The translations under genes were made by a program, and so were the position numbers. DNA of 64,000 nucleotides. It comes from a bacterium (lineage in GTDB: Bacteria > UBA8248). Position 1 is the stretch's first letter, and every line of letters starts with the position of its first letter. Below are positions 31,800 through 51,991 of this stretch, in pieces. Where the stretch lies: NCBI GenBank assembly GCA_963692865.2, contig OY843592.1, positions 1,920,001-1,984,000 of the forward strand, written 5' to 3'. Below the pieces are notes generated by a model. The model saw nothing but the letters and a program-made list of their open reading frames with translations, was not told the origin of the DNA and made no database searches.

Positions 31800-32528
31800 G
31801 GGCTGTTGAAAAACCCCTCTCTGCCTCATCCTGAGTAGCGGCGAAGCCGCGTATCGAAGGATGCCCTCTCGCTCCGGCGCAAGGCGTTCGACTCCCCTCG
31901 CCCTTCGATATGCCGCCTTCGGCGGCTACTCAGGGTGAGGAAAGAGGCGTTGGCGGTTCGCAGGGGTCGCAGACGGGGGTTTTGCAACAGCCCCTCGTCA
32001 GGGGTCAATTTCGAGCGATGAGCGAGAAATTGCGGGCCGATGTGTTTCTCATCCATGGCTTATGCAAACGCTCGTTCCTCGGGGCTGTTGAAAAACCCTG
32101 TTCCGGGGTCGGGCGGACACACGGGTCCGCCCCTACGTTTCGTTTCGCAGAGGTTGGCAGGTGGCGGCTCCTCCCTCTTTGGTCGGAACCGACTCCTCGG
32201 GAGCGCCCCACGCATATCATGCGACCCGTATTGTGAAGGCGAAAAGGCAGGGCCGCATGATATGTCAGACATATATGTCTGACATACGGTGAGATCCCGA
32301 CCGGCCCGCAAGGGCTTTTTCAACAGCCCCTCCTCACTCGCGTTTGACCCCTGACGAGGGGGATAGGGGGGGGCGCCTTTACGGGGCGGCGCTCCGGATA
32401 AGACCACCGCGCAACCCGCCGGACGCCCCCTGCGAAACAAGGCTTTTCAACGACCCCCTCAAGGGGGGAGTGAAATTCAAAAGTGTGCGCGCAACCCAAA
32501 ATCGCTTCCTGGACTTTTTCAACAACCC
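31800..32528. mobile_element. TIR-bounded composite non-autonomous cassette A with REP-like cargo
   Basis: Left TIR GGGCTGTTGAAAAA at 31800, right TIR ending 32528, flanking direct repeat CTCCTT (31794-31799 / 32529-32534); internal TIR copies at 31976, 32081, 32311 and 32441. Confidence 0.75.
31824..31940. repeat. Inverted REP-like doublet (CCTCATCCTGAGTAGC...GCTACTCAGGGTGAGG)
   Basis: Two ~38-nt arms that are reverse complements, each with an internal GCGGC-GAA-GCCGC type hairpin. Confidence 0.8.
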
Positions 32529-32644
32529 CTCCTTAATCGAGATTGATCCCGAGAATTTGCTTCCCCGCTCCGGATGGGTTACATGATGAAAAACCGGCTC
32601 GGCGGTCGAGCCGGCTTCGCGTCCGTTTCATTCGGGAATCTCCG

Positions 32645-33154
32645 ATGGCCGTCCTGGAAATCCTCAAGTATCCGGCCCCCGCCCTTCGCCGGAAGTGCCC
32701 GCCCGTCGAGCGCGTCACGGAGCGGACCGGGGAACTCGCGCGCGCGATGCTCGCCACCCTGCACGATGCGCCCGGCGTCGGCCTCGCCGCCCCCCAGGTG
32801 GGGGAGAGCGTCCGGCTCATCGTGGTGGACGTCTCGGTCGGAAAAGACCCCAAGCAGGTCCATTTCCTCGTCAACCCCGAGATCGAGAGCGCGGACGGCG
32901 AGCGGGTCGTGGAGGAGGCCTGCCTCTCGCTGCCGGGCGTGAGCGAGAAAATCCGCCGCCACGAGTCGGTGCGCGTGCGCGCGCTGAACCTGGAGGGCGA
33001 GGAAGTAATTCTCGACGCGCGCGAGGTTCTCGCCTTCGTCCTCCAGCATGAAATCGACCATCTGGACGGAAAACTCATCCTGGACCGCCTCAACAAGACG
33101 AAGCGCGAGCTCGTGAAGCGCCGCCTCAAGAAACAGGCCAGGGCCGCCTCTTAG
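32645..33154 (+). CDS. def: Peptide deformylase
   Basis: GVGLAAPQVG, EACLS, QHEIDHLDG. Confidence 0.96.
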   Translation: MAVLEILKYPAPALRRKCPPVERVTERTGELARAMLATLHDAPGVGLAAPQVGESVRLIVVDVSVGKDPKQVHFLVNPEIESADGERVVEEACLSLPGVSEKIRRHESVRVRALNLEGEEVILDAREVLAFVLQHEIDHLDGKLILDRLNKTKRELVKRRLKKQARAAS

Positions 33155-33244
33155 AAAACCCCGTTTCGCCCGTGCTATATTTTCACGGCTGGTTCTCGCG
33201 CGGTCTCAAGAGTGGTCGATGCGCGTTTTTCCCGGGAGGAATCC

Positions 33245-34192
33245 ATGCGGGCGGTCTTTTTCGGCACATCCGAATTCGCCGTGCCTGCGCTTCGGGCGCT
33301 GATCGCCTCGCCGGTCGAGGTGGCGGCCGTCTTCACGCAGCCGGACAGGCCCGCGGGCAGGGGCCGCAGGCTCACGCCGTCGCCCGTCAAGGCGTGCGCG
33401 CTCGAGGCGGGCCTTCCCGTGCTGCAGCCCGAGCGAATCCGCTCGACCGACGTCGCGGAATTCCGGCCCGACTTAGGGATAGTGGCGGCCTACGGGCAGA
33501 TATTAAGCGCAAAGCTGCTGGGCGTCCCCCGGCTGGGACTGGTGAACCTGCACCCCTCGCTTCTTCCGCGCTGGCGGGGCGCGGCGCCGATACAGCGCGC
33601 CCTCCTGGAGGGAGACGCCGAAACGGGTGTCTGCGTGATGCGGGTCACGCCCGAACTGGATGCGGGCGCGGTGCTCGCGCGGCGTTCGCTTCCCATCGGG
33701 TCGCGGGACACTTCCGCCGATCTGCACGACAAGCTGGCGGAACTCGGAGCCGGGCAGGTGGTGGCGACGCTGCTCGCGCTCGAAAGAGGCGAGGTCGCCG
33801 AAGAACCGCAGGATGAATCCCTGGTCACCTACGCCGAAAAACTCCGCAAAGATGAAGCGAAACTCGATTGGCGTCTGACCGCCGGCCGCCTCGACAGGCT
33901 GATCCGGGGCCTCAACCCCTGGCCGGTGGCGGAGACCGCCTGGCCGGACATAACCGGCGGCCCGGTGCGGATTTGGCGCGCGTGGCCGGTGGCGGAGGGC
34001 TCGGGCGGGGCGGCGGGCGAGATTCTGGGGTCTGCAGATTCGCCCGAGGGTGCGGGAATCCGCGTGGCGACGGGCGAGGGGGATCTGGTGCTCCTCGAAA
34101 TTCAGCCGCCCGGCAAGAAGAAGATGGACGGGGGCGCGTTCGCCAGGGGATATCCTTGCCGGCCCGGCCTCGTCATCGGAGAGGGCGCGTGA
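33245..34192 (+). CDS. fmt: Methionyl-tRNA formyltransferase
   Basis: TQPDRPAGRG, NLHPSLLPRWRGAAPI, LDAG. Confidence 0.97.
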   Translation: MRAVFFGTSEFAVPALRALIASPVEVAAVFTQPDRPAGRGRRLTPSPVKACALEAGLPVLQPERIRSTDVAEFRPDLGIVAAYGQILSAKLLGVPRLGLVNLHPSLLPRWRGAAPIQRALLEGDAETGVCVMRVTPELDAGAVLARRSLPIGSRDTSADLHDKLAELGAGQVVATLLALERGEVAEEPQDESLVTYAEKLRKDEAKLDWRLTAGRLDRLIRGLNPWPVAETAWPDITGGPVRIWRAWPVAEGSGGAAGEILGSADSPEGAGIRVATGEGDLVLLEIQPPGKKKMDGGAFARGYPCRPGLVIGEGA

Positions 34193-35559
34193 GCCGGAAC
34201 CTCGCGGTGAGCGGGAAAAGCGCGCGCTCCGCCGACCTCGTTCGCCGGGCGGCGCACGCCGCTCTCCTTTCTTTCGGAAAAACCCCCGTCGCGGCGGATA
34301 TTCTGGTCGAGCGGTTCGCCTCAAAGGACTTCGACGCGCGCGACCGCGCGTTTTTGCGCGAACTGGTCTATGGCGTCCTCAGGCGGCGGGGGCGTCTCGA
34401 TTTCGTTTTCGGCCATTTTCTCAAAAAACCGAAACTTGCCCCTCCCGTGCGCGAAGCGCTGCGGCTGGGCGCATATCAGCTCTTGTTCATGGATCGCGTG
34501 CCCGCGCACGGCGCGGTGGACGGCGCGGTTTCCTTGCTGGATCGCAAGAATCTGGATTGGGCGAGGGGCCTGGTGAACGCGGTGCTGCGCAAGGTGGCGG
34601 CGCATGACGTAGCGCCGCCCGATGAGATCGAGGATTACCTCACGATTTGGGAGTCCCACCCGCGTTGGCTCGTGAAGCGCTGGATGCGCGCGCTCGGCGA
34701 TGAGGAGGCGCTCAGAAGGTGCCGGGCGAACAACGAGGAGGCCCCCGTCGTGTTCCGCGTGAACACTCGGGCGTCGGACGCCCGGAGTCTGGCGGCCGAA
34801 CTTGAGAGCGAGGGCGTTGCGACGCGGCCCGGATGCGCCGACCCCGATTGTCTGGTGTTCCTGCCGGATGACAGCGCGGCAGGCGCGCGCTTCAGCGATA
34901 CGGCGGCCTGGCGCGAGGGTAAATTCATCGTCATGGACGAGAGTTCGAGCCTGGTGTCGCGCTTCGCCGGCGCCGCTCCCGGCGAGAGCGTTCTCGACGC
35001 CTGCGCGGCGCCCGGCGGGAAAACGGCCTGCCTCTCCTGGGCGGCGGGAGAGGGCGGGAGCGTCTTCGCCGGCGATACGTCGCCTCGCCGCCTCGCTCGC
35101 CTTGAGCGCAATTGTGTTAGGATTCGGGCGGACGCGCGGCTCTTGCGGATGGATGCGATGAGGCCGCCTTTTCATGAAGCATTCGACCTCGTCCTCGTGG
35201 ATGCGCCGTGCAGCGGGACCGGCGTGTTCCGGCGGCATCCCGATGCGAGGTGGCGACTGAGAGAGGAAGACCTGGGGGCGCAGGCGAAGCGGCAGAAGGC
35301 GCTCCTGCGCGGCGCGGCCTGCGCGGTGCGCCCCGGCGGCAGGCTGGTCTATTCGGTTTGCGCGAACGAGCCCGAGGAGACCGAAGAGGTGGCGGCTTCG
35401 TTTCAAGTTCCCGGCTTCGTTCCCATTCGCGGTGGAGGCGCGCTGCCCGAGTGCGCAAGGGATTTTCTTGAGCCGGACGGGAGCTTGCGGATCACGCCGG
35501 GAGACGGGCTTGACGGCTTTTTCGCCATGAGTTGGCGCAAAGAGGGCGGAAGATGCTGA
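34189..35559 (+). CDS. rsmB: 16S rRNA m5C967 methyltransferase
   Basis: NusB-like N-terminus (VNAVLR), DACAAPGGKT, DAPCSGTG, YSVC. Confidence 0.93.
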   Translation: MSRNLAVSGKSARSADLVRRAAHAALLSFGKTPVAADILVERFASKDFDARDRAFLRELVYGVLRRRGRLDFVFGHFLKKPKLAPPVREALRLGAYQLLFMDRVPAHGAVDGAVSLLDRKNLDWARGLVNAVLRKVAAHDVAPPDEIEDYLTIWESHPRWLVKRWMRALGDEEALRRCRANNEEAPVVFRVNTRASDARSLAAELESEGVATRPGCADPDCLVFLPDDSAAGARFSDTAAWREGKFIVMDESSSLVSRFAGAAPGESVLDACAAPGGKTACLSWAAGEGGSVFAGDTSPRRLARLERNCVRIRADARLLRMDAMRPPFHEAFDLVLVDAPCSGTGVFRRHPDARWRLREEDLGAQAKRQKALLRGAACAVRPGGRLVYSVCANEPEETEEVAASFQVPGFVPIRGGGALPECARDFLEPDGSLRITPGDGLDGFFAMSWRKEGGRC

Positions 35560-36491
35560 AAGGGATATTGAAGGGCGTTTTCTGGTTTGCGCTCCTGATG
35601 GCGCTCGGCGGCGCCGGGGGCGCCGTGGGCCTCTACGTCTTCAGGGGGGGAGAGGGCGTCTTCCTGCCCCAAGTGGCGGGCCTCGACGTGGTTCGCGCGC
35701 TGGAGCTGCTTGGAGAGAAGGGGATTCCCATGCAGGTCTCCGGGCGCGAGTTCAGCAATGAAGTGTCCATGAACCACGTCGTGAGCCAGAATCCTCCGGG
35801 AGGGCGCCGGATCCGCAAGGGGAGGATCGTGTCGCTCGTTCTCAGCAACGGCCCGCGCGACGTGGCGGTGCCCGCGGTGGTGGGGGAGAACCTCAGCCGC
35901 GCGGAGTCGCTCATCCGCCTGGAGGGTCTTCGCGTCCGTCTGGTGGAGCGGTTGTACGACCCCGGTCGGCCCATCGGCCAGGTTCTGGGCGTCTGGCCGG
36001 GGGAAGGTGAAAACGTCAGGCGCGGCGAAGGCGTGGTTCTCGTCGTCAGCCAGGGCGCCCGCGAACGGGCGTACGTCATGCCCGCCCTGATCGGGGAACC
36101 CGTCAACGACGCTCTCGACAAGGTTCGCGCGCTCGGCCTGACGGTCGGGCGCGTGCGCTACGTGGACCGCCCGGGCTCGCTCAGGGGCTCCGTCGTTTCT
36201 CAACTGCCGTCCCACGGGCGGCGTGTTCTGGCGGGCCACCACGTGCACGTTGACGTGGCGCGCGGCGCGGACCAGATGGCGGGGAACTTCATCGTCCTGC
36301 GCTACCGCGTGCCGGGTGGGAAACCCCGGCGCGCGCTCCGCGTGGAACTCGAATCGGACGGCGTGACGCGCGAGGAACTCTCCCGCGAGGTGAGCGCGGG
36401 CGAGGAGATTCACCTGCTGGTGCGGGTGAAGGGCGTGGCGCGCGCGCGTATTTTCCTGGACGGCCTTCTGGTCGAAGAACAGACGCATTAG
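35553..36491 (+). CDS. Membrane-anchored PASTA-domain protein (three PASTA repeats, no kinase domain)
   Basis: N-terminal TM; repeats beginning LPQVAG, VPAVVG and MPALIG with VVSQ.P. Confidence 0.85.
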   Translation: MLKGILKGVFWFALLMALGGAGGAVGLYVFRGGEGVFLPQVAGLDVVRALELLGEKGIPMQVSGREFSNEVSMNHVVSQNPPGGRRIRKGRIVSLVLSNGPRDVAVPAVVGENLSRAESLIRLEGLRVRLVERLYDPGRPIGQVLGVWPGEGENVRRGEGVVLVVSQGARERAYVMPALIGEPVNDALDKVRALGLTVGRVRYVDRPGSLRGSVVSQLPSHGRRVLAGHHVHVDVARGADQMAGNFIVLRYRVPGGKPRRALRVELESDGVTREELSREVSAGEEIHLLVRVKGVARARIFLDGLLVEEQTH

Positions 36492-36504
36492 GGAAGGAAT
36501 CGAC

Positions 36505-37182
36505 ATGCCGAAGCCCGATATGGCGCCCGGCGAAATCCGGGTCGCACCCTCTTTGCTCTCGTGTTCTTTCGAGAGAATGGGCGAGGAGATAGCGGCGGTG
36601 CGCGAAGCCGGGGCGGACTGGCTGCATTTCGACGTGATGGACGGGCATTTCGTGCCGAACATATCCGTGGGGCCTCTGGGCGTCGAGGCGGCCAGGCGGG
36701 CCGCGCCGGGCATGGCGCTCGACGTGCACCTGATGATCGCGGATCCGGATCGCTACGTCGAGGCGTTCGCCGATGCGGGCGCGGACATCCTGACGGTGCA
36801 CGTGGAGGCGCCGACGCACGTCCACCGGACTCTCCAGAGCATACGCGCGCGCGGTTTGGGCGTCGGGCTGACGCTGAACCCCGGAACGCCGCTTTCGGCG
36901 GTGGAGGGCCTGCTCCCGGAGGTGGACATGGTCCTCGTCATGAGCGTCAATCCGGGCTTCGGGGGCCAGAAGTTCATACCGGCTTCGCTGGAGCGGATTC
37001 GCCGTCTGAGAGGGATGATCGAGGCGGGAGGACTGTCGGTTCTGATAGAGGTCGACGGCGGCGTCACGCCGCGCAACGCGGCGGAGATACGCGCGGCGGG
37101 CGCGGAAGTACTGGTGGCCGGTTCCGCCGTGTTCGGCGCGCAAGACTACGCCGAGGCCGTACGCGGCATCAGGGGCGGATGA
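36505..37182 (+). CDS. rpe: Ribulose-phosphate 3-epimerase
   Basis: HFDVMDGHFVPN, DVHLM, MSVNPGFGGQ, VDGG. Confidence 0.97.
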   Translation: MPKPDMAPGEIRVAPSLLSCSFERMGEEIAAVREAGADWLHFDVMDGHFVPNISVGPLGVEAARRAAPGMALDVHLMIADPDRYVEAFADAGADILTVHVEAPTHVHRTLQSIRARGLGVGLTLNPGTPLSAVEGLLPEVDMVLVMSVNPGFGGQKFIPASLERIRRLRGMIEAGGLSVLIEVDGGVTPRNAAEIRAAGAEVLVAGSAVFGAQDYAEAVRGIRGG

Positions 37183-37538
37183 GGCTTGATTCGGGCTGTT
37201 GAAAAAGTCCTCATGAATGAGGGTTTGACGCATCCGATGAAAGAGCAAGAAACACTCCCCCCTTGAGGGTCGGGCTTCCCGAGGGGAAAGCCCAACGGTG
37301 AAGCCGAGCGTTTTTTGCGAAGGCTAAACCGGTGGGGGGAGATTTACTCTGTGGCATGTCCCCCCACCAACTCGCCTGCGGGCTTCGCCCTTGCCTCATC
37401 GTCGGCCTTCCCGAGGAGGAAAGATGGGGTAATCGGGTTGGTCTGCGAACTACCGCGTGTGGCGGATGTTCCTCTGCCTTATGATTCGAGGCGAGGCCGG
37501 GATGGTCCGGTCTCTACGCGCCCGCAGGAGGAGCAGTC

Positions 37539-38579
37539 ATGAACTACTTTGCAGGACTCGACGTGTCGTTGGAGTGGACGAGTGTGTGCGTGGTGGACGC
37601 GGAGGGCGGGATCGTCCGGGAGGCGAAGGTCGCGAGCGAACCCGCGGCCCTCGTGGCGTTCTTCACCGGACTGGCCTTCGGCGTAACGCGCATCTGCCTG
37701 GAGGCGGGGCCGCTGTCACAGTGGCTCCATGACGGTCTGGCCGAGGCCGGGTTCCCGGTGGTTTGCGCCGAGACGCGGCAACTGAAGGCGGTGCTCTCGG
37801 CGACGGTGAACAAGAGCGACCGCGACGACGCGCGCGGCATCGCCCAGTTGGTTCGCGCGAACCTGATTCGCCCGGTGCACGTGAAGACGGTGTCGAGCCA
37901 GGAAAAACGCATGCTCCTCGCCAACCGCAGGTTCATGCTGAAGCAGTTGTGCGACGCCGAGGCCCACATCCGGGGCACGCTGCGCAACTTCGGGCTGAAG
38001 ATGGGCAAGGTCACCCGTCGCGGTTTGGAGGCGCGTGTAGGGTGTCTGGTCGCGGAGCGCCCGGAGTTGGCGCGCCTGGTGGCGCCGATGCTGCGGGCTC
38101 GCTCTGCGCTGCTGGCGGAATACGTCCGGCTGCACAGGATGATGCTGGAGGCGGCGCGAGCCGATCCGGTCTGCCGGCGCCTGATGACGGTTCCCGGCGT
38201 GGGTCCGGTGACGGCGCTCACCTTCCGGGCGAGCGTCGACGTGCCATCGCGTTTTGCGCGCTCGCGCTCGGTGGGCGCGCACTTCGGGCTTGTGCCTCGC
38301 AAATGGCAATCCGGAGAGGTCGACCGCACGGGAAGCATCTCCAAATGCGGCGACGCGATGATGCGCGCGGCGCTCTACGAAGCCGCCAACGTCTTGCTCG
38401 GGCGCACGACGCGGTGGTCATGGCTGAAAGCCTGGGCGATGGGTGTGGCGAAGCGTCGCGGCAAGTCGCGCGCGAAGGTTGCGCTCGCCCGCCGGCTCGG
38501 CGTCATCATGCACCGCATGTGGATGGATGGCAGTGAGTTCCGCTGGAAGCGCGACGGCGCGGATGCTTCGGCTGCCTGA
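37539..38579 (+). CDS. IS110-family DEDD recombinase/transposase
   Basis: GLDVS, LEAG and KSDRDDA (DEDD), VPGVGP, GLVP..QSG serine motif, VALARRL; RBS AGGAGG. Confidence 0.97.
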   Translation: MNYFAGLDVSLEWTSVCVVDAEGGIVREAKVASEPAALVAFFTGLAFGVTRICLEAGPLSQWLHDGLAEAGFPVVCAETRQLKAVLSATVNKSDRDDARGIAQLVRANLIRPVHVKTVSSQEKRMLLANRRFMLKQLCDAEAHIRGTLRNFGLKMGKVTRRGLEARVGCLVAERPELARLVAPMLRARSALLAEYVRLHRMMLEAARADPVCRRLMTVPGVGPVTALTFRASVDVPSRFARSRSVGAHFGLVPRKWQSGEVDRTGSISKCGDAMMRAALYEAANVLLGRTTRWSWLKAWAMGVAKRRGKSRAKVALARRLGVIMHRMWMDGSEFRWKRDGADASAA

Positions 38580-38877
38580 GGTCGAGACACTGAAGAAGGA
38601 GGACCACAGACAAACCCTGTAGCTTCCGCCTCGGCGGGGGATGCTCCCGTGGGGACGAGGGACGAAGTGAGTACGCTGTCGGCCTAGCCCCGCTGCGTCG
38701 GTGACGATGCGAGGGCGCAGGAAAGATTGTTCCACTTCGTTCTCCGATCCCATCCTGTTGACGGCCCCCGGCTCGGGAGTCGATCACGAAGAGAAGCGAG
38801 ACCCCCATGGAGCGTCATCTGCAGCCAAAGGCGGAACAGGTCTGACAGAACCAGGGGAGAGGAACTTGACTTGCCCT
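38580..38877 (+). ncRNA. Predicted bridge/seek RNA of the IS1111-type element (ends approximate)
   Basis: Two stem-internal loop-hairpin modules (38662-38740, 38741-38801) whose loop strands match the target and the donor junction. Confidence 0.8.
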
Positions 38878-38993
38878 ACCCGATTAGAGAAGACCGACCC
38901 TCAAAGGGGGAGTGGTTCCATACTGCGTGTTAATCGGTATTGCTCGCGAGGAGGGAGTGAACCTCAAGACCATCGAGGTCGAACGCGGGCGGT

Positions 38994-39079
38994 GTAGGGG
39001 CCGCATATCATGCGGCCCGCCGCCGGAGGGGCGAAAAGGCCGGGCCGCATGATATGTCGGACATATATGTCTGGCCTAC
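38994..39079. repeat. GTAG-type REP doublet (REPIN-like)
   Basis: GTAGGGGCCGCATATCATGCGGCCC ... GGGCCGCATGATATG...CCTAC; related copies at 51444-51516 and 51819-51889, partial copy at 32211-32287. Confidence 0.8.
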
Positions 39080-39161
39080 AAAACCGTATTCCCTGCATGA
39101 CGACCGTGGGGGCGCTTCACGAAGGCCCCCACGGGAACATCCCTTTGAGAGATCAAAGTGC

Positions 39162-39380
39162 CCGTCATTCCGGCGAAAGCCGGAATCCATTTTCGCCTTT
39201 GTCTTTGGCCCTTCGCTTAGACGTCCTCGTTCCCGGCCGGGGAAGATACGGACACCGCCATATGTATCCACCTTATCCGTTTCGGACTCGGGCGCGGCGC
39301 CCCCTCCCGCGAGTCGGAATCAAATGCAAAAACGAAGGTAAAAATCATAAAATGGATTCCGGCTTTCGCCGGAATGACGG
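39162..39380. repeat. CGTC-type REP doublet
   Basis: CCGTCATTCCGGCGAAAGCCGGAATCCATTTT and its perfect reverse complement about 155 bp away. Confidence 0.85.
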
Positions 39381-39592
39381 TGGTTGTCCCGCATTGAGGG
39401 GGTTTTTCAACAACCCCGAGGAGGGAGCGTTCGCTGCCCTTGGCAGGGCTTTTTCAACAGCCCCGAGAGGGCGGCCCGCTCCATTCGCGGTTGACACCTT
39501 GCGCATAAAATCCTTATAAGTTTGGTTTCCTCACCCGGCGTTGCGGGTGGAAAATCGAAAACATATTGAATATCAATCAGTTGGGGTGCCCG

Positions 39593-40927
39593 ATGTTTGA
39601 CGGCTTGAAAGAGCGCCTGGGCGGAATCTTCAAGGATTTGAGAAGCCGGGGCGTTTTGGGTGAAAAAGAGGTCGATTCCGCGCTTCGCGAGATTCGCCTG
39701 GCCCTGCTCGAAGCCGACGTGAACTTCCGGGTCGCCAAGGATCTGGTGGCGAAAATCCGCGAAGATCTCCTCGGCGTCGAGCGCGTCGCGCACCTCGATC
39801 CCTCTCAACAGGTCATCAAGGCGGTCCAGGGGCGTCTCATCGAACTCATGGGGGCGAAGAACGCGCCGCTCGAGCGCGCCTCGAGCGGCGTCACCACCGT
39901 GATGCTCGTCGGTCTGCAGGGTTCGGGAAAGACGACGACGGCCGGCAAGATCGCCCTGAAATTAAAGAGCAAGGGACTGCGCGTTCTTCTCGTGCCCGCG
40001 GACGTGGCGCGGCCCGCCGCCATCGCCCAGCTCAAGCGGCTGGCCGAGCAGACGGGCGCGGAAGCGTTCGATTCAGAAGGAATGCCGGACCCCGTGGAGA
40101 TCGTCCGTCGGGCCGGCGAAAGAGCCCGGATCGAGCATTTCGATTACTGCATCGTGGACAGCGCGGGCAGGCTGCACGTCGACGACGCCCTGATGGACGA
40201 GTTGAAACGGATGAAAGAAGCGGCGCGGCCCGAGGAGGTGCTCCTGGTCGCGGACGCCATGACGGGCCAGGAAGCGGTGAACTTAGGCGCCGCGTTTTCC
40301 GAGCGCATCGGCATCACGGGCGTCGTGCTGACGAAGCTGGACGGCGACGCCAGGGGCGGCGGCGCCCTCTCGCTGCGCTCGGTGACGGGCGTGCCCGTCA
40401 AACTGGTCGGCGTGGGCGAGAAGCTCGACGCGATCGAGGAGTTTCACCCCGAGCGAATGGCTTCGCGGGTTCTGGGCATGGGAGACGTCATGTCCCTCAT
40501 CGAGAAGGCCGAGGCCGCCATCTCGGCGGATGACGCGAAGTCCATGGTGGAGTCCCTCGGCAAGGGTTCGTTCACCCTCGCGACGATGAAGGAGCAGATT
40601 CTCCAGATGCGGAAGATGGGTTCGATGGGCGACGTCTTGTCCATGATACCGGGGCTGGGAAGCCGGATGCCCGACGTGGATATCGACGAGACCGAACTCT
40701 CGCGCACGGTGGCCATCATCGATTCGATGACGCCCGCCGAGCGCGCGAAGCCCGAGATCATCAAGGGCAGCCGCAGGAAGCGCATCGCCGCCGGTAGCGG
40801 AACCCGGGTGCAGGACGTGAACCGGCTGCTCAAGCAGTTCGCGCAGACACAGAAACTGATGAGGCAATTTTCAAAGGGCGGGAAGAAAAAACAGATGCAG
40901 AGAATGCGTCAAATGCTTAATTTCTAG
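39593..40927 (+). CDS. ffh: Signal recognition particle protein
   Basis: [36 protein letters not shown]. Confidence 0.98.
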
Positions 40928-40938
40928 GGAGACACGCT

Positions 40939-41184
40939 TTGGCCGTAAAAATCAGACTTGCCCGTGGAGGCATGAAAAAGGCGCCGCGCTACCGCGTCGT
41001 CGTGCAGGATGAGCGCATGCCGCGCGATGGACGCTTCATCGAGAGCATCGGCCGCTACGACCCGTCGGAGGACCCCGCGTTCGTCCATATCGACCTCGAG
41101 AAGGCGAAGGCCTGGATGGAGAAGGGCGCCATCCCGACCCGGACGGTCAGGAACCTTCTCGACAGGGCGGGCATCAACGATTAG
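40939..41184 (+). CDS. rpsP: 30S ribosomal protein S16
   Basis: [24 protein letters not shown]; TTG start. Confidence 0.97.
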
Positions 41185-41193
41185 GCAAACCCC

Positions 41194-41700
41194 GTGAGCG
41201 GCAGGGTGGCCGTGGGCGTCGCGGTCAGGCCCCACGGCGTCAGGGGAGCCGTCCGGGTGGAGCCCTGGCTCGACGATTTGGGCGTCTACGGGCGGATCGA
41301 GGAGGTTTTCTCCCGCGATGAACCCGGGAAGAGATTCGAGGTGGCGGCCTGCCACCGGGGCGGCAAGGGCGCCGTCGTCTGGAAGTTCGAGGGAATCGAC
41401 ACCCCCGAGGCCGCCGAGGCGCTGCGGGGGATCGTTTTTCTGGCGGACAGGAAATTCCTGGGCGGCCCCGAAGAGGGTGTTCTCTATTTCGAGGATTTCG
41501 AGGGCTGCGAAGTCATCGACGAGGCGGGCAGCCTCTTGGGGCGCGTGGTGGACATGTTGGGCGCCGGCGGCAACGACGTCATCGTCATCCGCACGCCCGA
41601 TGGTGAGGAGTTGCTCGCGCCCGCCACGCGCGAGGTCGTCCTGCGGCGCGAGGGGGAGCGCTGGATATTCCGAATGCCGAAATTCGATGACGAGGACTGA
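41194..41700 (+). CDS. rimM: Ribosome maturation factor RimM
   Basis: PHGVRG, GIDTPEAAEALRG, GGNDV; operon position. Confidence 0.9.
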   Translation: MSGRVAVGVAVRPHGVRGAVRVEPWLDDLGVYGRIEEVFSRDEPGKRFEVAACHRGGKGAVVWKFEGIDTPEAAEALRGIVFLADRKFLGGPEEGVLYFEDFEGCEVIDEAGSLLGRVVDMLGAGGNDVIVIRTPDGEELLAPATREVVLRREGERWIFRMPKFDDED

Positions 41701-41709
41701 GGAGGCGCC

Positions 41710-42438: not shown

Positions 42439-42452
42439 AGGGGCCGGGGGTA

Positions 42453-43025
42453 TTGGGCAACGTCTATCTCGCGCTGATTCACCATCCGGTGCTCAACCGC
42501 GAGGGCGGCGTGGTGACCTCTTCGGTCACGAGCCTCGATTTGCACGATCTCGCCCGCGTGGGCCGCACCTATGGCGTCTCGGGCGTATTTGTGGTACATC
42601 CTTCTGCTCCGCAGCGGGCCTTCGTCGAGCGGGTGATTGGGCATTTCACGGAAGGTCCGGGCCGCGCGCTGCACCCGCAAAGAGGCGAGACGCTCGAGTT
42701 CCTGGAAGTGCTGCCCTCTCTGGATGCGCTCATCGAGGGGGTGGAGCGAAAGGAATCGAAAAGGCCGCGCCTCGCCGCCACGACGGCCAGGCGGGCGCCC
42801 GGCGCCGCAGGGTATGAAGCGCTGCGCCGCGAGGTGAGGGAGACGGACGCCCCGCTCGTCATCCTGTTCGGCACGAGCTGGGGTCTGGCGGATGAGGTTT
42901 TGGAGATGTCCGACGTTGTACTGTTGCCCGTGGAAGCGGAGGCCGATACGGGGTTCAACCACCTGTCGGTTCGCGGCGCTTCGGCGATAGTGGTGGATCG
43001 CATTTTCGGCAAAAGAGAGGTATAG
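42453..43025 (+). CDS. SPOUT-class RNA methyltransferase (TrmD-associated family)
   Basis: [36 protein letters not shown]. Confidence 0.88.
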
Positions 43026-43056
43026 TGCCGGTTTTTTCAGGACAAGGAGCAGGCGG

Positions 43057-43404
43057 GTGAACATTATCGACAAGATCGAGCGCGAGGGCATGCGCAAGGA
43101 CGTTTCCGAATTCGAGCCGGGAGACACGGTGCGCGTTCACGTGAAAATCGTGGAGGGCGACAAGGAGCGCATCCAGGTCTTCGAGGGCGTCGTCATCGGC
43201 AGGCAGGGCGGCGGGCTTCGCGAGAGGTTCGTCGTTCGCAAACTCTCCTACGGAATCGGTGTGGAGCGCATATTCCCGGTGCATTCCCCCAGAGTCGACA
43301 AGATAGAAGTTACCCGCAAAGGCCGCGTTCGCCGCGCGAAGCTCTACTACCTGAGGGACCGCAAGGGCAAGGCCGCCCAGGTGAAGGAGAAGCGCTGGAG
43401 GTAG
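43057..43404 (+). CDS. rplS: 50S ribosomal protein L19
   Basis: [27 protein letters not shown]. Confidence 0.98.
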
Positions 43405-43423
43405 GGAGTTTTAGCTTCAAAAC

Positions 43424-43462
43424 AAAAAAGCCCCGGGGCAAAGTCCCGAGGCTTCTTTCTTG
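43424..43462. terminator. Bidirectional terminator between rplS and the convergent hydrolase gene
   Basis: A-tract, AAGCCCCGGG..CCCGAGGCTT stem, T-rich tail. Confidence 0.7.
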
Positions 43463-43472
43463 TTCTCTCCGC

Positions 43473-44462
43473 TCAACCTTCCAGAAAATTCTGCACCTCG
43501 CTGTAGAGGGCCTCGCGGCACCATTCGTACTGGGCGAAGTGCGTGGCGTCTCCCAGCGTGATGGAGCGCTTCCCGCGGCTGTTCGCGAGCGCGCGGTAGA
43601 CGGCGGCGAAGACGGGGTCGGTCGAGCTTCTGTCGTGGTCTCCCCGGATGGTCAGGACCGGGCAGGTGATCCTGCCCGCGTCGTAGAGCGGCTTGTTGCG
43701 CGCGCGGTCGTAGCTGTCCGCCATGGCGCCGTTGGGCACGCGGACGGCGGGCGTTTTCCGCTTGGCGCCCTCGGGGTCGAACTTCTGCTGTTCGCTCCAG
43801 AAGCGCTTGATGGCCGCCTCCGTCCGCCACTTCGCGTGCCGGCCCTTCGGGATGCTCCCGTCCCAGCGCTCGCGCTGGTAGCTTTCAGTCACCCAGCGCC
43901 ATGCCCCCTTGCGGGGGTCCCAGCGTCCGGGCCGCGCGGGGTCCTCTTGGAGCGCCGCCGCCTGCGGGTTGTCGTAGGCGTAAAAAGGCGCGTAGAGCGC
44001 GAGGCGGCGGACTCTTGCCTGCTTCCCGGCGGTGAAGGCGGCCGTCGTCGTCGTGCCCCACGACCAGCCGAGGAGGTTGAGCTTCCCGATGTCGTTTTGC
44101 CCGCAGATGAACCTGACGGCGGCGTCGATGTCGCGCACCGCGGTGATTCCCCGCACGGCCGGCGGCCGGCCGGCCGGGCTTCTGAGCATCTCGGGCGGGC
44201 GCGTGGAGGGGCCGTAGCCCCGGATGCACAGCGCGTAGACGTGAAAGCCGCGGGAGGCGGCGAAGTCCATCCACGAGTAGCCGGGGAGCGGCAGGTCGAA
44301 GGCGACGGGCGCGGGCGTGCTTTGCCCGTGCGCCATGAGCAGCGTGCCGGCGGCTTCGGACTTCTCCATCCCGCGCGGTTTTTTCTCTCTCAGGTGCAGC
44401 TTGACGCCTTCGTCGTGCGAATCGATGAGGTGGTCTTTTCGGAACAGCTTGGGTTTGGCCAA
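43473..44462 (-). CDS. Alpha/beta hydrolase
   Basis: HG oxyanion motif, RGYGPS, GWSWG nucleophile elbow, C-terminal D and H. Confidence 0.88.
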   Translation of the reverse strand: MAKPKLFRKDHLIDSHDEGVKLHLREKKPRGMEKSEAAGTLLMAHGQSTPAPVAFDLPLPGYSWMDFAASRGFHVYALCIRGYGPSTRPPEMLRSPAGRPPAVRGITAVRDIDAAVRFICGQNDIGKLNLLGWSWGTTTTAAFTAGKQARVRRLALYAPFYAYDNPQAAALQEDPARPGRWDPRKGAWRWVTESYQRERWDGSIPKGRHAKWRTEAAIKRFWSEQQKFDPEGAKRKTPAVRVPNGAMADSYDRARNKPLYDAGRITCPVLTIRGDHDRSSTDPVFAAVYRALANSRGKRSITLGDATHFAQYEWCREALYSEVQNFLEG

Positions 44463-44544
44463 CGTATCTTCTCCAGTCGGTGTTTACTCGGGTTCGAGGA
44501 ATGTCCCCATATTCTCAGATTTTCAGGCCGCCCCCAAGCCCAAA

Positions 44545-44854
44545 GGTTGTTGAATAACCCCAATCAGTGAGGAACTACTCCCCCCTTGAGGGGGAGTCGA
44601 AGAGGCCGAGTCCTTCGGACGAAGGCCGATTCAGTGGGGGGAGCTTTTGACTTTGTTAGAATTGTCCCCCACCGATTCGGTTTCGGGTTTTCACCCTCAC
44701 CTCATCGACTCCCCCTCAAGGGGGGAGTGATTTTTAATGCCACAAGAGGGTAGCACACCCCTCTCCCCGGTCGGGTTCAACCCCCAACCCTCTTGTCCCC
44801 CCTTGTCGGGGGGTAGAAGCCATGACCCCCCGACGGGGGTTTGTCAACAATCCC
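44545..44854. mobile_element. TIR-bounded composite cassette C
   Basis: GGTTGTTGAATAACCCC ... GGGGTTTGTCAACAATCCC enclosing two palindromic repeat families; no flanking direct repeat seen. Confidence 0.6.
44577..44728. repeat. ~150-bp palindromic repeat with ACTCCCCCCTTGAGGGGGAGTC terminal arms
   Basis: Inverted arms with internal GTGGGGG/CCCCCAC stem; related copies at 37253-38904 (interrupted by the IS) and 51596-51785; fragments at 32454, 45994 and 51382. Confidence 0.8.
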
Positions 44855-44931
44855 GCGGATGGCGGGTTTGCCTTGAGAACTCTCCTGTTCACCGATATAT
44901 TGGGGCAATCCACCGCCCATAATGGTCTTTC

Positions 44932-45534
44932 ATGTATTCCATCGAACGCGAACTCGTGGGCGAAGGCGCCTCGCCCGTCGCAGGCGTGGACGAGGCCGGT
45001 CGCGGCCCCCTGGCGGGGCCGGTGGTGGCCGCCGCCGTGGTGCTGGACCCGGAGAATCCCGTCGACGGCCTTGCCGACAGCAAGAAACTGTCTGCGCGGC
45101 AGAGGGAGGCGCTCTTGCCCGAGATTCTCGCCAAGGCGCGCGCCGTCGCCCTGGCGGCGGCGGGGCCGCGCGAGATCGAGAGGATCAACATCCTGCAAGC
45201 CTCCCTTCGCGCCATGGCGACCGCCGTGGAGGGGCTTGGAGTAGCGCCCGCGCACGTCCTCGTGGACGGCAACAGGAAGATTCCCATAAATCTCCCGCAG
45301 ACCCCCCTCGTGAAGGGCGATTCGCGCTGCGCCTGCATCGCCGCGGCGAGCGTGGTCGCCAAGGTGTACCGGGACCGGGTGATGGCGCGCATGGAGGAGC
45401 GTTTTCCGGTCTATGGCTTCGGCAAACACAAGGGTTATCCCACGCGCGAGCATCTCGCCGCTCTGGAGCGGTTCGGCCCCTGCCGCATCCACAGGCGCAC
45501 TTTCCGGGGCGTTCCCGCCGTAGTCGGAGCGTGA
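44932..45534 (+). CDS. rnhB: Ribonuclease HII
   Basis: GVDEAGRGPLAGPV, DSKKL, AAASVVAKV.RD, HKGY.T. Confidence 0.97.
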   Translation: MYSIERELVGEGASPVAGVDEAGRGPLAGPVVAAAVVLDPENPVDGLADSKKLSARQREALLPEILAKARAVALAAAGPREIERINILQASLRAMATAVEGLGVAPAHVLVDGNRKIPINLPQTPLVKGDSRCACIAAASVVAKVYRDRVMARMEERFPVYGFGKHKGYPTREHLAALERFGPCRIHRRTFRGVPAVVGA

Positions 45535-45541
45535 GGACGCC

Positions 45542-45901
45542 ATGAGCCGCGAGAGCGGAAAGATCGGCGAAGACGCCGCCGTGAAGTTCCTGCGCCGCCA
45601 TGGGTATGAAATCATCGAGCGGAACTACCGGGGTACGCGCTACGAGGTGGACATCATCGCGCGCGAGGGCGGGGTGTTGTCGTTCATCGAGGTCAAGACC
45701 CGCGCGCCGGGCAAGTCGCTCAGCGGGGCCGAAGCCGTGGGCCGCGAGAAACAGCGCAGAATCGCGCAGGCCGCGCAGCACTACCTGATGACGCATCCCG
45801 GGGAGCAATCGTCCGTCTGCCGTTTCGACGTGGTGCTGCTCGAAGCCGAGCCTGGGAGAAAGCCGGAGGCGAAAGAGTTGATTCGGAATGCGTTCCAGTA
45901 G
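45542..45901 (+). CDS. YraN family (UPF0102) protein
   Basis: GEDAA, EVDII, FIEVKTR, RFDVV. Confidence 0.93.
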   Translation: MSRESGKIGEDAAVKFLRRHGYEIIERNYRGTRYEVDIIAREGGVLSFIEVKTRAPGKSLSGAEAVGREKQRRIAQAAQHYLMTHPGEQSSVCRFDVVLLEAEPGRKPEAKELIRNAFQ

Positions 45902-45927
45902 CGCTACTTTGCGGCCGCATCCCTTCG

Positions 45928-46095
45928 GGCTTGCTGAATAAGCCCCGAAAAACAGGGAATGGATTTCTCTTTAGACCATCCGCTTATGAAATGACTTCCC
46001 CTTTGAGGGGGTTGTTGCCCCCTCCAATCGAGGGTATTCACCGTCATGACGGCAGGGGTCGATTCCGATCGAAAAAGGGGGTTTTTCAACGGCCC
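45928..46095. mobile_element. TIR-bounded cassette D (168 bp)
   Basis: GGCTTGCTGAATAAGCCCC ... GGGGTTTTTCAACGGCCC; flanking direct repeat CCCTTCG (45921-45927 / 46096-46102). Confidence 0.75.
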
Positions 46096-46128
46096 CCCTT
46101 CGACGGGACGGCCGCCTCTCGGTGCGGT

Positions 46129-46908
46129 TCAGGGATTTCGCTCGGCGATCAGGCGCAGGCCCAGAAGGGTCAGGTCGGGGTTGATCAGGTCGAAAACTCC
46201 GTTTTCCTCACCAAAGGCCAGGCTCTGCCCGCCCGTTGCGACGACCTTGGCGCCGCCGCCGAGTTCCGCTTTCATGCGCTCCACGATTTCCCGCACCAGG
46301 CCCCTGTACCCGTAGGCGATGCCGGACTGGATGCTGTGCACCGTGTTTTTCCCGATGACGGAGGGCGGCAGGGCGGTTTCGACCCGCGGGAGGCGGGCCG
46401 TTTTGTCGATGAGCGCCTCAAGAGCGATGCCCAGGCCGGGCGAAATGGCGCCGCCCAGGTATTCTCCCGCAGCGGAAATCGCGTCGAAGGTGATGGCGGT
46501 TCCGAAATCGACGATCACCAGGGGCCCGCCGTAGAGGTGGTGGCCCGCGACGGCGTTCACGATTCTGTCCGCCCCCACCTCGCGGGGGTTCTCGTACTTG
46601 ATGGAGATTCCCGTCCGTATGCCCGGGCCGACGACCAGCGGCTTCACGCCGAAATAGCGTATCGCCATCTCTTCGAGGTTCGGCCCCAGGGGGGGCACGA
46701 CGCTCGCGATGACCACGCGGCCCACGTCCGGCATCCGGTGCTCCCCGAGCCGGAACAGGCCCTCCATGAGGATGGCGAGTTCGTCCGTCGTGCGGCGGGC
46801 CACGGAGCCGAGCCGCCAGCTAGAGAGAAGTTCTTCGCCCTCGAAAAGCCCCACGACGGTCTGCGTGTTGCCCACGTCGATGGCCAGCAAACGGGAGCCC
46901 TGGTTCAT
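46129..46908 (-). CDS. coaX: Type III pantothenate kinase
   Basis: DVGNT, VGADR, DFGTAIT, GGAISPG, ATGG. Confidence 0.96.
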   Translation of the reverse strand: MNQGSRLLAIDVGNTQTVVGLFEGEELLSSWRLGSVARRTTDELAILMEGLFRLGEHRMPDVGRVVIASVVPPLGPNLEEMAIRYFGVKPLVVGPGIRTGISIKYENPREVGADRIVNAVAGHHLYGGPLVIVDFGTAITFDAISAAGEYLGGAISPGLGIALEALIDKTARLPRVETALPPSVIGKNTVHSIQSGIAYGYRGLVREIVERMKAELGGGAKVVATGGQSLAFGEENGVFDLINPDLTLLGLRLIAERNP

Positions 46909-47672
46909 GGGAGTTCCACCTCGCCCGAAGTTATCCTCTCAATCGTGCCGTCCGCTTTTTCGAGCAGCAGGCGGCCCGCCTCGTCTATGCCCTTGTTCTT
47001 TCCAATCAGCGTTTCATCCGCCGCGCGGACGGAGACGCTCTCGCCCAGATTGTCGCACAACCCGAGCCACCGCTCCCGCACGGCGTCGAAACCGCCCGAT
47101 TCATATTCCTTGTACCAGAATGCGATGCGCTCAAGAAGGAGGCGGAGAAGACCCTCCGCGTCGGGAGTCTCTCCTCCCGAGAGAAGAACCGAGGACGCCG
47201 ACTCGCGCAGTTCGGGGGGAAAGTCGGTTTCCCGCGTCGCGAGGTTCACGCCCAACCCTGCGACGACGGCGGGTGGGTGATTCGGGGGTTCCAGGTATTC
47301 GCAGAGGATTCCGCCGATTTTTTTGCCCCTCACCCTCAGGTCGTTCGGCCATTTGAGCCCGACACGAAGCCCCGTCGCCCCGGAAAGTCCCTCCGCCGCG
47401 GCGACGCCGACCAGGAGCGTCAGGCGGGGCGAGGTTTCCGCTTCGCCGCCCGTGGGGAGCAGGACGGAGAAATAGAGTCCGCTCTCGGGTGGCGAGAACC
47501 ACGAACGCCCCCTTCTTCCTCGTCCTTTTGTCTGGGAAATGGCGCGTATCACGAGGCCGCAGGGTTCGCCCCCCCGCGCGCGGGCGGAGACCAGATCGTT
47601 GGTGGAGCCGGCTTCGTCAATCGTTTCGACGCGCCAGGAGAGCGTCTTCTCCTCGGCGCGGGCGGGGCCCAT
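46905..47672 (-). CDS. birA: Biotin-[acetyl-CoA carboxylase] ligase (no HTH domain)
   Basis: GSTN, QTKGRGRRGRSW, KWPND, KIGGILCE. Confidence 0.95.
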   Translation of the reverse strand: MGPARAEEKTLSWRVETIDEAGSTNDLVSARARGGEPCGLVIRAISQTKGRGRRGRSWFSPPESGLYFSVLLPTGGEAETSPRLTLLVGVAAAEGLSGATGLRVGLKWPNDLRVRGKKIGGILCEYLEPPNHPPAVVAGLGVNLATRETDFPPELRESASSVLLSGGETPDAEGLLRLLLERIAFWYKEYESGGFDAVRERWLGLCDNLGESVSVRAADETLIGKNKGIDEAGRLLLEKADGTIERITSGEVELP

Positions 47673-50294
<2,622 letters not shown>

Positions 50295-50297
50295 AAC

Positions 50298-51071
50298 TTA
50301 TTCTCCGCGTTTGATTTTCTCGATTTCTCGAATGACGATTTGCTCTACGATATCGGGGAGTCGTTGCGCCACGACCTCTTCGATGTGGCTGAGCAACGTG
50401 GGGGCGATCTTTTCCGCCGCTTCTTCCAGATGTTTCTCGATGACGGGAGCGAGTGTTTCGCTATCGAGGACGGGCGGGGCGTCGGAAGAGGGTACTTGCT
50501 CCTCATCGTTCCTGGATTCCGCGTCTCCTGCCTCGGCGGGAGCCGCTTCCATTTCTCCGGGCGTTTCTTCCGCAGCCGTGGCGGAAGGAGTTTCAACGGA
50601 TTCCCCTGTGGGGTCTCCTGAAGAGGAGGGCGGTTCCGCCATCCCGGCTTCCGGGGAATCAGGTTCCACCTGCGCTTCGGACTCCGGCGTCGACGCGATA
50701 TGCCCGGGACCGATGATGCGCTCCACTTCGTCGGTAAATACCACCGGCTTGAACGGTTTTTCGATGTTTGCCGTCGCGCCCACTTCCTGGATTTCCTCAT
50801 CGCTGACGCTGTTGCGCGTGCTCGTTAAAACGAGGAGATGTACCTGGGATAAATCCGGTTGTTCGCGCAGGCGGCGGCAAAACCCCAGGCCGTCTGAATG
50901 CTCCATGTCCAGGCTGGCTACGACGATGTCCGGCGGCGCATTTTGCGCGATTTCAAGCGCTTCGTCCGCATTCTCCGCTATCTGGACGTCGACTCCTTTA
51001 TCCCTGTAGGCCAATTCCACGACGCGTTGCACCAGGAGGCTTTCATCGAGGAGAAGCAATTTGGTCGCCAT
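50298..51071 (-). CDS. Pseudo-receiver protein with acidic Pro-rich linker and helical C-terminus (RomR/PopZ-like)
   Basis: Receiver fold with KPF, but PDIVVAS lacks the usual acceptor Asp; P/E/S-rich linker; C-terminal RLPDIVEQIVIREIEKIKRG. Confidence 0.75.
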   Translation of the reverse strand: MATKLLLLDESLLVQRVVELAYRDKGVDVQIAENADEALEIAQNAPPDIVVASLDMEHSDGLGFCRRLREQPDLSQVHLLVLTSTRNSVSDEEIQEVGATANIEKPFKPVVFTDEVERIIGPGHIASTPESEAQVEPDSPEAGMAEPPSSSGDPTGESVETPSATAAEETPGEMEAAPAEAGDAESRNDEEQVPSSDAPPVLDSETLAPVIEKHLEEAAEKIAPTLLSHIEEVVAQRLPDIVEQIVIREIEKIKRGE

Positions 51072-51234
51072 GTGTTCTGTTCCTCGTCCGGGCGTTCGCT
51101 GGATGAGCCGAGTGGAGGATAAGAATCAGGAGTCTGCGCTCAAATATCTTTAGAGTTATCACATTTTCTTGCGCCGGATCACCGATTGACAATCATGCCA
51201 CTACCATAATTCCGGGGTCAACCTGTCTCTATTT

Positions 51235-51991
51235 GGGGTTGTTGAAAAAGCCCCGTCGACATCGCCTTTACCCCTCTGACAAGGGGGGACGGGGGGGTTG
51301 CAGTGACAACTCCGAGGGGGTGTTGAAAAAGTCCTGATTTCTAGATTTATCGTATATAACCGACCGACGAGAGAGGAAAACCACTCCCCCCTTGAGGGGG
51401 TAGTTGAAAAACCTATCCCTCTCGCATCAACCACGTTTTACCCGTAGGGGTCGCATATCATGCGACCCGGCCTTTTCGCCTCTCCGGCGGCGGGCCGCAT
51501 GATATGCGGCCCCTACACCGCCCGTGTTCGACCTCGATGGTCTTGAAATTCACTCCCTCCTCGCGAGCAATACCGATTAACACGCAGTATGGAACCACTC
51601 CCCCCTTGAGGGTCGGTCTTTCCGCCTCGGGAAGACCGACGGCAAGACGAGGACGAAGCCCGAAGTCGCGCCGGTGGGGGGAGTTTTTTATTTTAGAATC
51701 GTTCCCCCCACCGAATCGGCCTTCGCACAAACCGCTCGGCCTCTTCGTCGGGCTTTCCCCTCGGGGAGCCCGACCCTCAAAGGGGCTGTTGAAAAACCCG
51801 GAGAGAGACAGTTTGTTTGTAGGGGCCGCATATCATGCGGCCCGCCTTGTGGAGGCGAAAATCAGGGCCGCATGATATGCGGCCCCTACAATGCCATCGC
51901 GTTTTGCGTAGCAGGACAGACACGGAGACCTGTCCCTACGGGATCATCACGTCGCCGACCGAGGGGATACATGGCCTTTTTCAACAATCCC
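51235..51991. mobile_element. TIR-bounded composite cassette E
   Basis: Left-type TIRs at 51235, 51316, 51397 and 51782; right TIR ending 51991; flanking direct repeat CTATTT (51229-51234 / 51992-51997). Confidence 0.75.

Follow-up and report, generated by a model that had tools for sequence, protein, structure and literature searches.

Among the described repeat systems that come closest to the elements considered here are repetitive extragenic palindromic (REP) doublets forming hairpins (REPINs), with their REP-associated tyrosine transposases (RAYTs), and the bacterial interspersed mosaic elements (BIMEs) of enterobacteria, i.e., GTAG-headed inverted doublets and intergenic mosaics of several palindromic motifs. 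Tn3-derived miniature elements with inverted repeats (TIMEs) are defined by Tn3-type inverted repeats of approximately 38 bp and by a Tn3-family transposase partner, and insertion sequences (ISs) of the IS1182 family are approximately 1.3-2 kb in size. In the available portions of the published accounts, TIMEs are described as non-autonomous, with ends that are able to mobilise the DNA between them, giving mosaic elements (PMC4133298). Within the IS1182 family, the portions available for two further accounts list ISPse1 of Paracoccus with 1,653 bp, an inverted repeat of 16/16 and a direct repeat of 4 (PMC3281130), and, in Methanosarcina acetivorans, IS1182-derived MITEs (miniature transposable elements with inverted repeats) with ISMac2 as their partner, one type of 160 bp with 14 copies and a direct repeat of 4 and another of 169 bp with seven copies (PMC3852290). 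IS1272 and TnSha1 of staphylococci are reported, in the text available, to target inverted repeats that form hairpins, with little specificity for the primary sequence, and IS1272 insertions to leave no target duplication and to delete part of the stem (PMC4923244, PMC5678879); some IS1182-family members are said to target palindromes in a review cited in one of these reports (PMC4923244). Here we analysed a window of 64,000 nucleotides (positions 1,920,001 to 1,984,000 of contig OY843592.1, assembly GCA_963692865.2) from a bacterium classified as UBA8248, an uncultured lineage whose genus is known here from metagenome-assembled genomes only. An earlier note on this window had described five intergenic loci (loci 1 to 5, at 31800-32528, 37193-39464, 44545-44854, 45928-46095 and 51235-51991; all coordinates are those of the window unless a contig is named), each bounded by inward-facing copies of a short end motif and filled with mosaics of other palindromic repeats, and had proposed that a transposase supplied in trans captures, shuffles and disperses these repeats as composite units.

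The best explanation of these loci, and one that we consider highly probable, is that the motif is the end of an IS1182-family IS, that several hundred MITEs with the same ends have been moved in trans, and that insertion into hairpin loops builds nested mosaics. Alignment and extension of all genomic copies gave a longer conserved core (GGGG-Y-TGTTGAAAAA-S-CCC) than that first reported, with a 19-bp consensus, GGGGYTGTTGAAAAASCCC, that is much more conserved than the adjoining sequence. In the 4.15-Mb genome, 1,001 matches to the 19-mer were found (up to 3 mismatches, de-duplicated), as compared to 4 in the reversed genome sequence, which served as the control; 48 of the 1,001 are located on small contigs that represent strain variants of the chromosome. 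These small contigs (seven, C2-C8 of assembly G000) are 96-99% identical to chromosome regions over 57-100% of their respective lengths, and the assembly thus mixes at least two strains, such that approximately 5% of the motif counts are duplicates. Within the window, the 19-mer has 18 matches, of which 17 belong to the five loci and one, a weak match, is at 52793; a further degenerate copy with a 1-nt deletion is found near 32443. The 14-mer form of the motif, at up to 1 mismatch, has 15 matches in the window versus 0.03 expected. All five loci open with a + copy and close with a - copy, as had been claimed, and this pairing and inward orientation extend to the whole genome; among neighbouring ends less than 3 kb apart there are 290 +- pairs (median span, 260 bp), while -+ neighbours within 3 kb are fewer and more widely spaced (131, median 1,319 bp). 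End clusters most often read +- (117), followed by ++- (36), +-- (27) and ++-- (16), i.e., nested brackets, and the 312 end pairs that span no more than 1 kb together account for 85.5 kb (2.06% of the genome).

No transposase of these ends is encoded in the window, as the earlier note had stated, and an open reading frame (ORF) bracketed by the same ends belongs to an IS with two copies elsewhere on the chromosome (G000:C1:1499149-1500662 and 1724374-1725887), the nearer of which is 194 kb from the window. The IS was spotted among end pairs with exact flanking repeats, two of which were 1,514 bp long, a size that fits the IS1182 family. The two copies are identical at 1,514 of 1,514 positions and lie in opposite orientation; both ends are perfect GGGGCTGTTGAAAAACCCC, and the terminal inverted repeat, 19/19, equals the 19-bp consensus of the end motif. 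The single ORF of 480 amino acids, a predicted DDE transposase, scored 345.5 bits against the NCBIfam model NF033551 (IS1182; cut-off 270) and below the cut-offs of the other IS5, IS4 and ISNCY models, with domain-level Pfam matches to DUF772, DDE_Tnp_1_6 and DDE_Tnp_1. Inventory of the genome revealed these two intact copies plus fragments. An IS1182-family IS of approximately 1.5 kb on a Sinorhizobium fredii plasmid, which is 60% identical at the amino acid level, ends in GGGGCTGTTGAAGAA tips and is flanked by a duplication of 5 bp, ACCCG; the same tips and this level of identity place the autonomous IS in a known alphaproteobacterial clade. Judged by its ends and its 5-bp duplications, this IS is a good candidate for the trans-supplied IS1182-type DDE element that had been postulated from the window. 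Of the sequence matches that start at the tips of the IS, 239 of 244 on the left and 244 of 246 on the right extend no further than 25 nt. The short end pairs are thus MITEs in the broad sense of elements with the same ends, having only the terminal inverted repeat in common with the IS; their interiors are not deletion derivatives of the partner IS, as those of strict "type I" MITEs are, while the traits of MITEs that were found are ends matching an autonomous IS, the same 5-bp duplication length, small size, multiple copies and empty sites.

Target duplications were scored after ends had been paired as nested brackets by a stack parse, which yielded 328 pairs, with shuffled partners as the control. 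An exact 5-bp direct repeat was present directly outside the tips in 66 of the 328 pairs, as compared to 5.4 expected, and 31 further pairs showed a 5-bp repeat with one mismatch (10.3 expected). Flanking repeats, which the earlier note had seen at three of its loci, are therefore 12-fold more frequent genome-wide than with shuffled partners. The repeats CTCCTT, CCCTTCG and CTATTT that it listed are real, but their length of 6-7 bp did not hold, the cores being TCCTT, CCTTC and TATTT; a one-base ambiguity is due to a variant tip or to a short run of G. In the three largest and most homogeneous subfamilies of elements, exact duplications flank 11/15, 6/12 and 8/10 members. Two candidate models were rejected: a free-offset scan had suggested duplications of 8-9 bp, of which, after position-specific composition was considered, only the central 5 bp proved to be a real duplication, the apparent longer repeats arising because the 5-bp duplication is combined with a CC..GG target that matches the GGGG/CCCC tips; and a purely palindromic "onion" growth model was discarded, as inverted instead of direct flanks were found in just 4 of the 328 pairs.

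The duplications also reveal the preferred target, which is a CC(CC)-N5-GG(GG) hairpin, for elements whose own tips are GGGG/CCCC. The most common duplications of the MITEs, TTGAG (10), GACAA (8), TTGTC (5) and CTCAA (5), are the loops of CACTCCCCCCTTGAGGG and CCCCCCTTGTCAGGGGGG-type hairpins; the two local IS copies are flanked by TTGAG and CTCAA, and a 5-bp repeat flanks 26 of 38 IS copies in related genomes, with CTCAA (11), TTGAG (4) and TTGTC (3) in the lead. We rebuilt the targets of 63 insertions with clean duplications on the chromosome (C1) and searched them by BLAST; 35 had at least 2 uninterrupted look-alikes, 27 had at least 10, and 26 had none. Over half of the insertions that could be dated thus hit other repeat families, and the IS and the MITEs share a target preference for the hairpin loops of such palindromic families.

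These observations are consistent with a mechanism in which the 480-amino-acid transposase most likely moves short inverted-repeat pairs in trans; we presume that this enzyme, rather than a lost relative, is responsible. Insertion duplicates 5 bp and favours the loop of a short CC(CC)-N5-GG(GG) hairpin, and such hairpins are provided for the most part by other families of palindromic repeats. MITEs in turn contain some of these target repeats, and elements hence pile into one another, giving nested + + - - layers. New combinations of left and right element halves may arise by recombination at shared central palindromes, by deletion between same-orientation nested ends, or by use of non-cognate ends, and GTAG REP-like doublets probably now spread as passengers of the MITEs. 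A broader version of this proposal is tentative, and we regard it as possible but on the whole doubtful: the IS1182-family transposase would be the engine of a self-feeding repeat ecosystem, in which the hairpins borne by its MITEs are its preferred targets, each round of insertion thus brings new ones, nested "onions" result, and GTAG doublets, normally clients of HUH/RAYT enzymes, are mobilised by a DDE enzyme without a RAYT.

The interiors of the elements bear on how the mosaics were built. The inner palindrome families named in the earlier note are real genome-wide families, with 243 matches for the GTAG REP-like repeat, 326 for CACTCCCCCCTTGAGGG (F1), 100 for the CTCATCCTGAGTAGC type and 210 for the CGTCATTCCGGC type, and 0 in each control. 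At 70% coverage, 277 adjacent pairs gave four large interior groups, characterised by a GTAG REP-like doublet (83 pairs), a long F1 palindrome (30), the CTCATCC type (26) and the CGTCATTCCGGC type (23); the largest group has a consensus with a GTAG REP-like doublet in its middle, and the other three groups are without GTAG repeats. For finer comparisons we used the 308 pairs of up to 800 bp, which at 90% length and 80% identity form subfamilies with sizes of 15, 12, 10, 6 and downward, and defined the 45 nt inside each end as a subterminal module. Modules fall into 88 clusters with several members (the largest with 66, 49, 49, 44 and 42) plus 254 singletons, and 746 of 1,000 are re-used; left and right modules have preferred pairings (M8-M5, 15; M0-M1, 10; M3-M7, 8; M6-M4, 7) and occur in 178 combinations in all. 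The earlier description of variable cargo was thus correct as to the mosaics but not as to arbitrary interiors, given that a minority of pairs belongs to recurrent subfamilies and that most modules are re-used.

The strongest rival explanation, which we nevertheless judge rather unlikely, is that the mosaics were built mainly by capture, with any two inward ends mobilising the intervening repeats as a composite and with nesting playing a minor part. Such a mechanism is recorded, in the portion of the account available, for Tn3-derived TIMEs (PMC4133298), and three subfamilies (sub0, sub1 and sub2) with REP-like or other palindromes between their ends have spread as units with duplications. Furthermore, ++- and +-- clusters are common, which makes non-cognate ends available, and capture would fit the 178 module combinations among 308 pairs. 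On the other hand, no composite with internal inverted repeats was found at two independent loci; the sole candidate, sub11, has 2 copies that are one and the same locus, seen once in the chromosome and once in a strain-variant contig. The 35 of 63 clean insertions into other repeats yield mosaics without any capture, and the pairs of up to 1 kb contain 51% of the GTAG, 31% of the F1, 46% of the CTCATCC-type and 36% of the CGTCATT-type matches, such that 49-69% of the matches of each inner family lie outside inverted-repeat pairs and the inner families also exist alone. Insertion of MITEs and ISs into other repeats is thus one source of the mosaics and the spread of particular composites as units, for subfamilies carrying duplications, is another; re-assortment of half-elements is also seen, presumably through the routes proposed above. 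Of the capture and shuffling proposed in the earlier note, a trans-acting transposase with paired ends stands, while capture as the main builder has largely been replaced by nested insertion into hairpin loops and re-assortment.

The abundance of GTAG-headed inverted doublets, a trait of REPINs (243 matches, control 0; central in 83 of 277 pairs), raises the alternative that the elements are REPIN-like units spread by a RAYT (HUH/Y1), with the outer motif an extended part of the REPIN. We consider this very improbable. No match to Y1_Tnp (PF01797), and hence no RAYT gene, was detected in the organism's own genome, which is 97.4% complete. Weak or partial matches were obtained in 11 of 23 genomes of the genus, the best in G006 (40 bits) and in G008 (35 bits, with an internal stop codon), and the four best of these loci have no GTAG repeats within approximately 1.5 kb. 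Moreover, the units are flanked by duplications of 5 bp, their ends are the same as those of a DDE-type IS, and three of the interior families are without GTAG.

The window does encode one transposase. The earlier note was right that the DDE partner is not encoded here but missed a gene for an IS110-family transposase (346 amino acids; 37539-38579, plus strand), which is part of an IS110-family IS of 1,476 bp (37417-38892, plus strand; Pfam DEDD_Tnp_IS110 and Transposase_20) in locus 2. This IS has six genomic copies with 97-100% identity, and five of them occupy an identical position within F1 (CACTCCCCCCTTGAGGG-type) palindromes, a pattern that points to targeting of F1 in a site-specific manner; a metagenome unitig of 1,476 nt has the same ends. 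The IS110-family IS is a passenger in locus 2 and not the driver of the inverted-repeat elements.

Comparison with relatives bears on both the transposition of the elements and a further alternative, namely that the motif is a host-selected site (e.g., a protein-binding site or a terminator, as in BIMEs) that is conserved by selection and not by transposition. Of 18 genomes sampled within the genus, 14 have tens to hundreds of copies of the end motif and the other 4 have none; outside the genus it was found in 2 of 12 genomes, with one or two single-mismatch matches. When the syntenic region of nine relatives was compared with the five window loci, locus 5 was empty in 9/9, with a single CTATTT-like copy, locus 3 was about empty in 9/9, and locus 4 was empty in 7/9, the other two relatives holding a different insert of approximately 505 bp with its own ends. 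Locus 1 was cleanly empty, with a single TCCCT at the homologous place, in G031, the one informative relative for this locus. By contrast, locus 2 was occupied in all nine relatives, at lengths from 48 bp to 1.3 kb, and is an old, repeatedly hit site beside the rpe stop codon. The empty sites that the earlier note had suggested looking for in relatives were thus found at loci 1, 3, 4 and 5. Selection for a host function would agree with the far better conservation of the 19-mer than of its flanks, with its persistence in most sampled species of the genus and with the occupation of locus 2 in all relatives. However, the motif equals the ends of an intact IS, comes with target duplications, and is missing at orthologous positions of relatives as well as in 4 of 18 congeners, and recognition by a transposase would be expected to conserve just the ends; a host-selected site is therefore hardly credible as the main explanation, although the motif may have a secondary host role. 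Least probable of all is that the elements are Tn3-family TIMEs, whose GGGG tips and 5-bp duplications they resemble, since the conserved end is 19 bp long and an exact match to an IS1182-family IS, although no search aimed at a Tn3-type transposase was made.

Several observations weigh against the explanation by an IS1182-family transposase and hairpin-loop insertion that we prefer. A duplication at the fixed offset, with up to 1 mismatch, was found in just 97 of 328 pairs (approximately 30%); we take the approximately 70% without a clean duplication to be decayed, slipped by 1 nt, mis-paired by the parser or rearranged. In the window itself, loci 2 and 3 and the unit at 31800-31994 are without a matching duplication, and 12 of 38 full-length IS copies in relatives have unlike flanks. 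The proposed link between the transposase and the MITEs, which share 19 bp, is drawn from agreement in the inverted repeats, in the length of the duplication and in the targets. As 194 of the 308 pairs are singletons (thresholds of 90% in length and 80% in identity), the explanation does not account in detail for much of the diversity of the interiors. Finally, comparison of the chromosome with approximately 209 kb of 96-99% identical strain-variant contigs yielded no clean presence/absence difference of a MITE; these contigs differ from C1 in replaced or rearranged repeat stretches only, without clean excision or insertion. Contigs from four metagenome runs, compared with window positions 32050-52049, show many joints across repeats with sides of just 20-28 nt; one joint skips 32076-32330 with 5 ambiguous letters. 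All of these joints may derive from other members of the repeat families. Such joints were not used as evidence on empty alleles, and the metagenome contigs contributed only the 1,476-nt IS110 unitig.

At locus 1, the outermost ends share the duplication TCCTT (31795-31799 and 32530-32534). The left part is a MITE unit of 195 bp (31800-31994) with a CTCATCCTGAGTAGC-type inner palindrome, modules M3/M7 and membership in subfamily sub6, whose ends are at 31800-31817 (one G short) and 31976-31994. It is followed by a MITE of 250 bp (32081-32330; modules M8/M5) that contains a GTAG REP-like doublet, has a CAAACGC..GCGTTTG hairpin repeat as its host, in whose loop it sits, and is flanked by a fourth duplication of the window, TCCTC, at 32076-32080 and 32331-32335. 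The rightmost inverted repeat (32511-32529, minus strand) carries module M4 and is followed by the right copy of TCCTT. Modules M3 and M4 are not usual partners, and the locus thus illustrates re-assortment.

Locus 2 begins with a left inverted repeat (37192-37210, plus strand, 2 mismatches) located 10 bp past the rpe stop codon, followed by a long CACTCCCCCCTTGAGGG-type palindromic repeat F1 (37253-38914) that is split by the IS110-family IS, a GTAG REP-like doublet (38994-39079), a CGTCATTCCGGC-type inverted doublet F3 (39163-39379) and two perfect right-hand inverted repeats (39399-39417 and 39446-39464, minus strand). The 3' end of rpe itself (GGGGCGG.TGA; 37170-37210) resembles an inverted-repeat tip, and among G008, G014, G031 and G011 a + end appears in several to be fused to the rpe stop-codon region; the site looks like a hot spot created by chance likeness to the element end. 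In the GTAG REP-like doublets of loci 1 and 2, a small perfect palindrome of the GTCAGACATATATGTCTGAC type (32262-32281 and 39057-39076) replaces one hairpin arm, as it does in many other copies, including subfamily consensuses; this palindrome is either a further nesting layer or a REP variant. The summed contig depth of the bin at 38720-39386, which includes the CGTCATTCCGGC-type doublet, is 100-500x that of neighbouring genes in all four metagenome runs, and this repeat is thus far more abundant in the samples than expected from its genomic copy number, perhaps through sharing with other organisms.

At loci 3 and 4 the ends are degenerate, each differing from the motif by 2-3 mismatches. 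Locus 3 is a degenerate element of 312 bp (44543-44854; ends with 3 and 2 mismatches) with an F1-type palindrome inside, and locus 4 is a MITE of 170 bp (45927-46096) flanked by CCTTC at 45922-45926 and 46097-46101. Locus 5 is a layered cluster of 757 bp (51235-51991) with + ends at 51235, 51316, 51397 and 51782, a - end at 51973-51991, and the duplication TATTT at 51230-51234 and 51993-51997. The first three same-orientation ends are at a spacing of exactly 81 bp, each with a different subterminal module. The duplication overlaps the stop codon of mltG/YceG (ORF 51992-53059, minus strand), which places the insertion directly after this gene.

While the mechanism as such is known, what is unusual here is its scale, with approximately 1,000 ends, the loop-specific insertion with a stem that is kept, and the presence of GTAG doublets in DDE-type MITEs in a genome without a detectable RAYT. 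The system is tractable, in that one predicted transposase has been identified, the end is defined at 19 bp, the duplication is of 5 bp and the target is a structure, and the genus may provide a natural system in which to study recognition of hairpin loops by a DDE transposase and the interlocking of repeat families. For annotation, the elements matter as approximately 2% of the genome; they explain strong differences in intergenic length between species of the genus as well as the breaks of short-read assemblies at repeats, and motif matches pile up at the contig ends of G018.

A literature text search for the motif sequence returned nothing relevant among the matches listed. Unlike REPINs with RAYTs and BIMEs, the elements described here have DDE-type inverted repeats and target duplications, in a genome in which no RAYT gene was found, and they differ from the Tn3-derived TIMEs, as far as the account of the latter extends, in transposase family and in end sequence. 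The MITEs of M. acetivorans are similar in being small, non-coding, multi-copy and bounded by the inverted repeats of an IS1182-family IS, according to the available part of that survey; they have approximately 30-fold fewer ends, and the table describing them shows neither modular interiors nor nesting. With the IS1182-family ISs of Alphaproteobacteria, which we compared as ISs only, the autonomous element shares a single predicted DDE transposase matching the IS1182 model, whereas the genome studied here adds approximately 1,000 ends from non-autonomous derivatives and a preference for hairpin loops. In contrast to IS1272, as portrayed in the text available, insertion in this genome duplicates the 5-bp loop and keeps the stem.

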